From: a virus
Lineage: Duplodnaviria > Heunggongvirae > Uroviricota > Caudoviricetes
Virus record (IMG/VR): IMGVR_UViG_2740892231_000007
Length of the DNA: 9,779 nt
Direction: 5' to 3' (one strand)
Below, piece after piece: positions 9,269 through 9,460 of the stretch (position 1 is the stretch's first letter; each line of letters opens with the position of its first letter). The position numbers and the translations under genes are program-made. A model generated the notes under the pieces. It made no database searches. It saw only the letters and a program-made list of their open reading frames with translations, and was not told the DNA's origin.

Positions 9269-9460
9269 GCGGGTCCTCCTGGTGGGGTGGGCCTGAACAC
9301 GGGGCGGGCGGCGCGGAAAAAAGCGCATTTTTGTGATTTTATCGTCATCATCATCATGTGTGTAACCTATTGTTTTTAATGTGGTTGATGCAAAAAAGAT
9401 GATGATTGTGGTTAATTTTTGTTCGACATCTTTTAGCGTGACAGATTCTTTACAAAAAAT
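9263..9460 (+). repeat. Copy B of the duplicated intergenic module of about 190 bp
   Basis: See copy A. Core CCTCCTGGTGGGGTGGGCCTGAACACGGGGCGGGCGGCGCGGAAAAAAGCGCATTTTTGTGATTTTAT, tail ending TTTACAAAAAAT about 38 bp upstream of the 9498 ATG. Confidence 0.5.

Follow-up and report, generated by a model that had tools for sequence, protein, structure and literature searches.

Two predicted cos regions of different terminase class on either side of the capsid gene of a small Escherichia coli phage satellite

Introduction

The DNA stretch IMGVR_UViG_2740892231_000007 (9,779 nucleotides, referred to below as the window, which always means this whole stretch) is filed as a virus of the Caudoviricetes and contains two copies of a GC-rich module, one on each side of a capsid gene, which raises the question of whether these modules are packaging sites and of what a single small element would do with two of them. 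A first-pass annotation of the letters alone had noted that the core of the downstream copy resembles in part the cohesive-end (cos) region of lambdoid phages. We consider it probable that the cosN nicking site of this downstream copy (copy B, about 9271-9440) is part of a complete lambda-type cos region of a phage-inducible chromosomal island (PICI), and that the upstream copy (copy A, about 6734-6900), which has the same orientation and lies 2537 bp upstream, is a second cos of the other class, giving the island one packaging start for each class of helper terminase. As judged from its gene content, the window represents a Gram-negative PICI of about 10 kb from the EcCICFT073 group, i.e. a small satellite of E. 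coli phages, in which a perC-family gene is followed by copy A, the small gene orf75, the capsid gene, copy B and the last gene, orf93. Every long gene of the window lies on the plus strand, as do all features described below.

The cos sites of Gram-negative PICIs have been treated in several publications (PMC6092414, PMC6739421, PMC9026076, PMC10111431). In one of these islands, EcCICFT073, two cos sites that differ in cosB have been shown by experiment to function (PMC6092414, PMC6739421; Fillol-Salom 2018, 2019), and its multimers are reported to fill phage-sized heads. The presence of two copies is therefore not unusual in this group, contrary to what had initially been supposed.

Results

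Subsites of the downstream copy

The copy B sequence from which the first-pass annotation started, ACACGGGGCGGGCGGCGCGGAAAAAAGCGCATTTTTGTGATTTT, is found at positions 9297-9340, and the span 9295-9330 highlighted there takes in its core; the lambda junction used there for comparison was also correct (GGTTACG/GGGCGGCGACCT/CGCGGGTTTTCGC; slashes indicate nicks throughout). The subsites predicted around this core amount to a complete lambda-type cos region with positions 9300-9315 as its cosN nicking site. The cosQ heptamer GGGTCCT (9271-9277) is the same as that of lambda, precedes the predicted top-strand nick by 24 nt and is intact in seven of seven fetched satellites and at all 17 copy-B sites in IMG/VR, where sites were sampled by their core pattern. 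The putative cosN, CG/GGGCGGGCGGCG/CG, would release a 12-nt 5' cohesive end (9302-9313). Lambda-like cos regions share an unvarying cosQ and CG at both nicks, and of the two halves of the 12-nt end the left is conserved and the right is free to vary (PMC4669245); all four properties are present at the sequence level in copy B, which has GGGCGG as left half and CG on both flanks.

The adjoining cosB (9327-9440) contains an R3-like element, TCATCATCATCAT (9345-9357), a candidate binding site for integration host factor (IHF), TAACCTATTGTTT (9363-9375), an inverted R2-like element, GATGATGAT (9398-9406), and a possible R1 (9424-9434). The R3- and R2-like repeats flank the IHF-like site, with TCATCATC and GATGATGA standing inverted around it, and R3 is located at bp 44-56 from the predicted nick, the start of a lambda-type cosB being expected at about 45-50 bp. 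In lambda, the stretch that copy B resembles most in local alignment is the I1 site (14 of 16 positions). The combination GGGTCCT-N20-26-CGGGGCGG occurs once in the window, at 9271-9307 (0.00 expected from shuffles).

The existence of a second copy of the module is likewise borne out, as the identity between positions 6721-6835 and 9258-9372 is 70% when no gaps are allowed and 78% in a gapped alignment of about 290 columns, and the window contains exactly two occurrences of CACGGGGCGG (6761 and 9298; 0.06 expected from shuffles). A G/C- and A/T-rich hairpin that had been suspected behind the core has to be given up, however, because folding there is no better than in shuffles (z = 0.06 and 0.23). 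The true hairpins are terminator-like stems directly upstream of the modules (6709-6726 and 9247-9262; z about -4). The one belonging to copy B (GGCGGC-ACCA-GCCGCC plus T-run, 9247-9268; -10.5 kcal/mol, z = -3.97) closes the capsid gene and abuts cosQ, while its counterpart (6709-6732 with T-run; z = -3.85, and also picked up by a terminator scan) follows perC and abuts copy A; the same order of hairpin and cosQ recurs at cos1 of EcCICFT073.

The strong hairpin that opens each copy, the position of each copy upstream of a gene and a conserved TTTACAAAAAA near the 3' end of both modules might also be expected if the module were mainly a transcription boundary, combining a terminator with a promoter or a regulatory site that serves the operons of the capsid gene and of orf93, and resembling cos only incidentally. 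We regard this as most improbable, because neither module contains a sigma-70-like promoter on the plus strand, the core does not fold, and the modules share about 90% identity over 167-196 nt with the cos interval of phages, with cosQ, cosN and IHF site in register with lambda. Furthermore, no Rfam family matches either module: a search of both strands with E values up to 1 yielded none within them, and the three weak matches at 6887-7057 were far below the gathering scores.

Phage relatives and their two terminase classes

Among 50,697 phage records searched, the matches of both modules are confined to lambdoid phages from E. coli and its relatives, mostly Shiga toxin (Stx) phages, and each informative match falls between the lysis gene Rz and the gene for the small terminase subunit (terS), in an interval that bears no annotation. 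Copy B is 88-90% identical to Stx2 phages and VT1-Sakai over about 196 nt, and copy A is 90% identical to phages 1720a-02 and CP-1639 over 167 nt; the cosQ-cosN stretch of copy B even agrees with that of phage Stx2_112808 at 53 of 53 positions. The large terminase subunits (TerL) of the matched phages consist of GpA_ATPase and GpA_nuclease domains and belong to the gpA family, and their TerS proteins are of the DUF1441 type (phrog_141). The extent of this identity, the collinear subsites, the gpA-family TerL and the affiliation of the island with the EcCICFT073 group support the proposal of the first-pass annotation that one or both cores are cos or cos-derived sites matched to a helper. In an alignment with lambda, CFT073 prophage 4 and cos1 and cos2 of EcCICFT073, the subsites are in register, in the order cosQ (GGGTCCT), a spacer of about 23-24 nt, CG/GGGCGG, a variable right half, CGCGG and an I1-type IHF site (TAA...TTG). 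The cos sites of lambda, the phi80-type phage 4 of CFT073 and EcCICFT073 form a separate cosN group with the cohesive end GGGCGGCGACCT, from which the end predicted here differs in its right half (bases 7-12).

The capsid protein of the satellite points to the same phages, as its best phage matches (51% identity over 99% of the protein) are exactly those that share the cos modules; fused protease/capsid heads of this kind have been likened to those of Gifsy-2 (PMC12315714). The relevant helpers are therefore to be sought not in lambda, phi80, HK97 and P2, which had been suggested as candidates, but in lambdoid phages whose TerS is of the DUF1441 type and whose protease and capsid genes are fused. 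The modules gave no matches to HK97 or P2 among the phage records searched.

Three further observations concern the records themselves. That of phage mEp460_4F5 opens with CCACGGGGCGGGAG, inside the core and 5 nt ahead of the equivalent nick position, and has terS at 189. In the record of phage ASU11 (ON416862.2, about 23171), the left flank of the module and a type-A cosB (see below) are present and the cosN core of about 45 nt between them is missing, possibly by an assembly artefact at genome ends. IMG/VR contigs ending at the core were considered as packaged ends and found uninformative, since they look like genome-derived prophage calls, as judged from the contig ids only.

Only two features set the phages matching copy B (type B, e.g. 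Stx2_112808 and VT1-Sakai) apart from those matching copy A (type A, e.g. 1720a-02 and CP-1639), namely cosB and the DNA-binding N-terminal part of TerS. From about residue 92 onward, TerS is 100% identical between the classes, whose proteins diverge in the first 90 or so residues, including a predicted wing after the helix-turn-helix (HTH), and the same TerL (WP_001077625.1) is found with both classes. The type of cosB co-varies perfectly with the N-terminal TerS variant: in IMG/VR contigs, 30 sites with type-A cosB adjoin type-A terS and 16 with type-B cosB adjoin type-B terS, and no typed cosB was seen beside the terS of the other class in this sample selected by core pattern. Similarly, the classes represented by lambda and phage 21 differ in cosB and the N-terminus of TerS and share TerL (PMC4669245, PMC9026076). 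The satellite holds one cosB of each class, as the cosB of copy B differs by 12% from Stx2_112808 and by 37% from the type-A phages, that of copy A by 10% from 1720a-02 and CP-1639 and by 36% from the type-B phages, and the mutual divergence of the two copies downstream of cosN is 41%. The two cosB types are both common, being present in 397 and 622 of 5426 complete E. coli genomes, satellites counted in.

The upstream copy, its lesions and its distribution

The cosB of copy A (6790-6900), which is of type A, contains an R3-like element, CATCACCACC (6812-6821), the sole perfect IHF consensus of the window, TAAGTTATTGATA (6826-6838), a weak candidate for R2 around 6859-6872, an R1-like element, TCATCACC (6885-6892), and direct CATCACC repeats. 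The parts of copy A that correspond to cosQ and cosN are altered. At the cosQ position it reads AGGTACT (6734-6740), two substitutions away from GGGTCCT, which we interpret from the sequence as a damaged termination signal; the lesion is present in five of the seven fetched E. coli satellites and at 16 of 23 copy-A sites in IMG/VR, while cosQ is intact at 49 of 49 phage sites. The cosN-like core CG/GGGCGGAGGGGCG/CG (6763-6779) has 13 nt between its CG flanks, compared to 12 in copy B and the matching phages, and thus fits the 12-bp rule only in part. Thirteen nucleotides also separate the CG flanks in VT1-Sakai, in ATCC 43889 and in copy B of E. coli 042, indicating that the length of the G/C run varies among real prophages as well; at these sites, the additional base may alter the length of the overhang or stem from the sequencing of a G-rich run. 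Over the cosQ-cosN stretch, 9 of the 54 positions of copy A deviate from phage 1720a-02, and its core always adjoins orf75 and never terS in the IMG/VR contigs sampled.

The succession of copy A, orf75 and capsid gene was found in 144 and that of capsid gene, copy B and orf93 in 143 of the 5426 complete E. coli genomes, the carriers including O157:H7, O121, O91 and O178 strains and the enteroaggregative strain 042. Satellites of Kluyvera, Yersinia and Moellerella show the order orf75, capsid gene and cos, with the downstream cos alone. The ancestral position is therefore that of copy B, and copy A was added in the E. coli lineage.

These data bear on the possibility that only copy B works and that copy A is a decaying relic of a captured helper late region (running from cos to the capsid gene), which would be idle or mildly harmful. 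In its favor are the damaged cosQ in most satellites together with the extra base in cosN, the divergence of the cosQ-cosN stretch from the respective phage class (17% for copy A, 0% for copy B) and the lone downstream cos in other genera, as well as reports that the transfer of EcCICFT073 rose after deletion of cos2 (PMC6092414) and that PICIs capture late genes of their helpers (PMC10111431). However, the cosB of copy A is as close to its phage class as that of copy B is to its own (10 and 12% divergence, respectively), and copy A keeps a perfect IHF consensus at the right place; moreover, the changes cluster in the parts concerned with termination instead of being spread evenly, and practically no cassette in E. 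coli lacks copy A (144 genomes versus 143). We therefore consider a relic rather unlikely, and copy A is treated in the following as a second cos.

The island and its genes

The window starts with the gene for a tyrosine integrase (1-1242), followed by those for a weakly AlpA-like HTH regulator (1739-1945), a DUF4222 protein and a RepA/AAA_25 helicase (4571-5980). Three iteron-like direct repeats, AAAAAGTGAGGCGCAAAAGTGAG, lie right after the helicase gene (5975-6001, 6060-6086 and 6144-6170, spaced by 85 and 84 nt) and probably represent the replication origin of the island, in keeping with descriptions of other Gram-negative PICIs. Between the alpA-like gene and the plus-strand genes that follow, a stretch poor in genes contains a 21-nt direct repeat, TTTTTGTGTATTGACACGTTA (2259-2279 and 2300-2320, 90% identical), and a 16-nt inverted repeat (2980-2995 and 3045-3060), which are possibly operators or promoters of a divergent regulatory region.

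The perC-family gene (6431-6703; Pfam PerC, E = 5e-45) forms the upstream boundary of the cassette made up of cos, capsid gene and cos. The small gene orf75 (7127-7354; phrog_4934, E = 9e-51) overlaps the start of the capsid gene by 4 nt and is left unannotated in several RefSeq relatives; it is likely to be a real gene, and it is kept upstream of the capsid fusion in satellites of Kluyvera, Yersinia, Moellerella and Buttiauxella (39-69% amino acid identity). The capsid gene itself (7351-9240), located between the two cos sites, codes for a ClpP-like prohead protease fused to a major capsid protein (Pfam CLP_protease and Phage_capsid_4). The last gene of the island, orf93 (9498-9779; 93 aa, phrog_1561), starts 197 nt past the predicted nick of copy B, the corresponding distance for the Nu1 gene of lambda being 191, and thus occupies the place relative to the nick at which phages start terS. 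Its product is 89% identical to that of the last gene of EcCICFT073 (locus 3374-3655), which likewise adjoins a cos site, and orf93 has been retained between the two islands despite their unrelated capsid and packaging cassettes. Neither orf93 nor orf75 gave a Pfam or PDB match.

The closest relative in a complete genome covers 92% of the window at 95.6% identity, with its island lying between tRNA-Pro and yejO and ending just past orf93, from which the size of the element is estimated at about 10 kb. One IMG/VR contig is identical to the window at 9775 of 9779 positions. The gene content is that of a Gram-negative cos PICI, with int, alpA, a replication gene with origin repeats, rightward genes, neither terS nor terL and a length in the class of about 10-15 kb. 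A capsid-forming PICI (cf-PICI) was considered and rejected, since the protease/capsid fusion is the only gene of this kind and terS, terL, HNH, portal and head-tail connector genes of its own are lacking, and the gene content is also unsuitable for a P4-like element.

Discussion

A proposed packaging route with two starts

The cos regions described here would most likely provide the satellite with one packaging start site per terminase class. The satellite has no terminase of its own, so packaging would depend on a helper, which we expect to be a lambdoid phage that combines a TerS of the DUF1441 type and a TerL of the gpA type with a fused protease/capsid gene. The cleavage of the sites, the positions of the nicks, the assignment of the sites to helpers and the effect of the cosQ lesion are what we infer from the observations reported above. 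TerS of the helper would bind to the matching cosB with its succession of R3, IHF site and R2, and TerL would nick at CG/GGGCGGGCGGCG/CG to produce the predicted 12-nt 5' overhang. DNA would then be moved in rightward from concatemers, beginning with orf93, the att junction and int, and continuing until the next cosQ-cosN is met. Termination is known to require cosQ and cosN and to be indifferent to cosB, and cosQ is invariant among lambda-like phages (PMC4669245). In the presence of a type-B helper, copy B would serve for initiation as well as termination; a type-A helper could initiate packaging at copy A and terminate it at copy B. Copy A itself is probably a poor termination site because of its damaged cosQ and the one extra base in cosN. 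If copy A were competent for termination, packaging started at copy B would yield sub-genomic pieces of 7.7 kb, which the cosQ lesion would prevent. The capsid protein of the island may form small heads; alternatively, multimers may fill heads of phage size, as in EcCICFT073.

Several points weigh against this interpretation. The nick positions of copy B rest on analogy, and direct similarity to lambda is not significant: 41 of 1000 shuffles scored as high as 9295-9330 in local alignment with lambda cos, and 272 of 1000 as high as copy A. The initial wording that the resemblance to lambda was suggestive without being a match was accurate in this respect, as the alignment stays within the range of shuffles, and the case for cos homology is based on the intermediate phages and not on lambda itself. 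For copy A, a repeat search found no inverted counterpart of the R3-like sequence, the candidate R2 is weak, and the site may not be cut at all, being unlike phage cos in cosQ and in the length of cosN. A molecule running from the cos of copy A to that of copy B would carry non-matching cohesive ends. The cosQ of copy A is intact at 7 of 23 IMG/VR sites, so its loss for termination is not a universal design, and the satellites of the other genera manage with one cos. Finally, the E. coli satellites are 95-99% identical to one another, and the conservation of both copies could reflect recent spread rather than selection.

A more far-reaching version, which we put forward only tentatively and regard as rather unlikely, views the island as a parasite with two keys, consisting of the full cos of copy B and an initiation-only copy A that is tuned to the other TerS class and has had its cosQ disabled by selection, so that it would no longer end packaging prematurely. 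An island without an Rpp-like protein would thereby become mobilizable by both terminase classes of Stx-type lambdoid prophages; in EcCICFT073, the inverted orientation of the second cos would have the same effect on termination.

Comparison with known satellites

EcCICFT073 is the closest of the known systems. The DNA flanking the cassette is 92-93% identical in the perC and orf93 parts (92% for the perC gene preceding the capsid cassette of EcCICFT073), the organization of the islands is the same, terS is absent from both, and both carry two cos sites with phage-like cosQ and cosN and differing cosB, one of them just upstream of orf93. In contrast, the capsid and packaging genes between the flanks are unrelated, being lambda E/D-like in EcCICFT073 and represented by the protease/capsid fusion in the island described here. 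The sites themselves also differ. The cos1 site of EcCICFT073 has a non-phage cosB that is read by Rpp together with the TerS of the helper, whereas both cosB regions of the present island copy natural phage types. The cos2 site of EcCICFT073 is inverted relative to cos1 and would therefore be useless for termination, whereas the two sites considered here are in direct orientation. Redirection of the Rpp type was considered for this island and dismissed, since both cosB regions are phage-like and no Rpp homologue was found in the window (tblastn with RppA, c1503, 144 aa, gave nothing better than E = 1.9), which makes it a non-Rpp member of the group.

Lambda shares with the predicted cos regions the order and spacing of the subsites, the cosQ heptamer, the left half GGGCGG, the flanking CG and, as predicted for copy B, an IHF site between inverted R elements. 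It differs in the sequences of the R elements, which are unrelated, and in its small terminase subunit, the DUF1441 TerS of the matched phages being only about 20% identical to Nu1. Among the satellites, the helper-embedded PICI 11capE has a capsid gene of its own and a stretch of about 258 bp that is 90% identical to the cos location in the genome of its lambdoid helper (PMC10111431). Copies of the cassette described here are also found inside prophage terL, but the capsid gene of 11capE is of the lambda E type, a single shared cos stretch has been reported for it, and the island of the window lies at a tRNA-Pro site in its close relative and not within a prophage. The cos-type Staphylococcus aureus pathogenicity islands (SaPIs) resemble the present island in using a helper cos instead of terS and in carrying a diverged homologue of the helper capsid (SaPIbov5, Ccm), and two putative cos sites are recorded for SaPIbov4 (PMC6092414). 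They are Gram-positive elements with HNH-dependent, HK97-like cos packaging, however, and show no sequence relationship.

Cassettes in other settings

Two strains, O157:H7 ECP19-198 (locus 4479-17504) and an O121:H19 isolate, contain a satellite with the same cos-capsid-cos cassette inside a prophage terL gene, with a primase in place of the RepA helicase. In ECP19-198, the prophage hosting the embedded satellite codes for a type-B TerS. The arrangement in these strains corresponds to the helper-embedded PICIs described in PMC10111431. In Kluyvera genomosp. 1, the capsid gene of the satellite is followed 2.6 kb downstream by another protease/capsid homologue (8500-9903, 49% identical), which suggests that this satellite also lies beside or inside a prophage head region. 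A PICI of E. coli GN02050 (about 835-1426) combines an EcCICFT073-type (lambda E-like) capsid gene with an upstream type-B cos whose cosB is 92% identical to that of copy B, and types of cos and capsid therefore appear to be mixed and matched among the islands.

Such exchange could be taken to mean that the direct cos repeats serve chiefly as homology arms for swapping capsid cassettes between satellites and helpers, with packaging as a secondary role. The occurrence of the same cassette at various att sites and on more than one PICI backbone would agree with this idea, as would the PICI with a different capsid gene that bears a type-B cos in the upstream position. Mosaic exchange is expected, however, for any sequence shared with phages and requires no dedicated function; moreover, the satellite has no other packaging signal and no terS, and cos function has been demonstrated in the sister island EcCICFT073 (PMC6092414). 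We thus find this explanation very unlikely and retain packaging as the proposed role of both sites.

Implications

Two-cos PICIs have already been documented, and the conceptual advance is therefore modest. The island is set apart by five differences, namely the absence of Rpp, the presence of natural phage-type cosB in both sites, their direct orientation, the non-lambda right half of cosN and the recurrent cosQ lesion in the second site. The naturally cosQ-defective cos allows the part played by cosQ in a satellite to be tested directly, and the natural pair of cosB/TerS classes with identical TerL represents a ready means of investigating packaging specificity in phages other than lambda and 21. 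Shiga-toxin phages are among the helpers predicted here. Provided that the cos sites work as proposed, these islands would be packaged by the terminases of Stx phages and, if this is true, may compete with Stx phage production and carry perC-type regulators between pathogenic strains.

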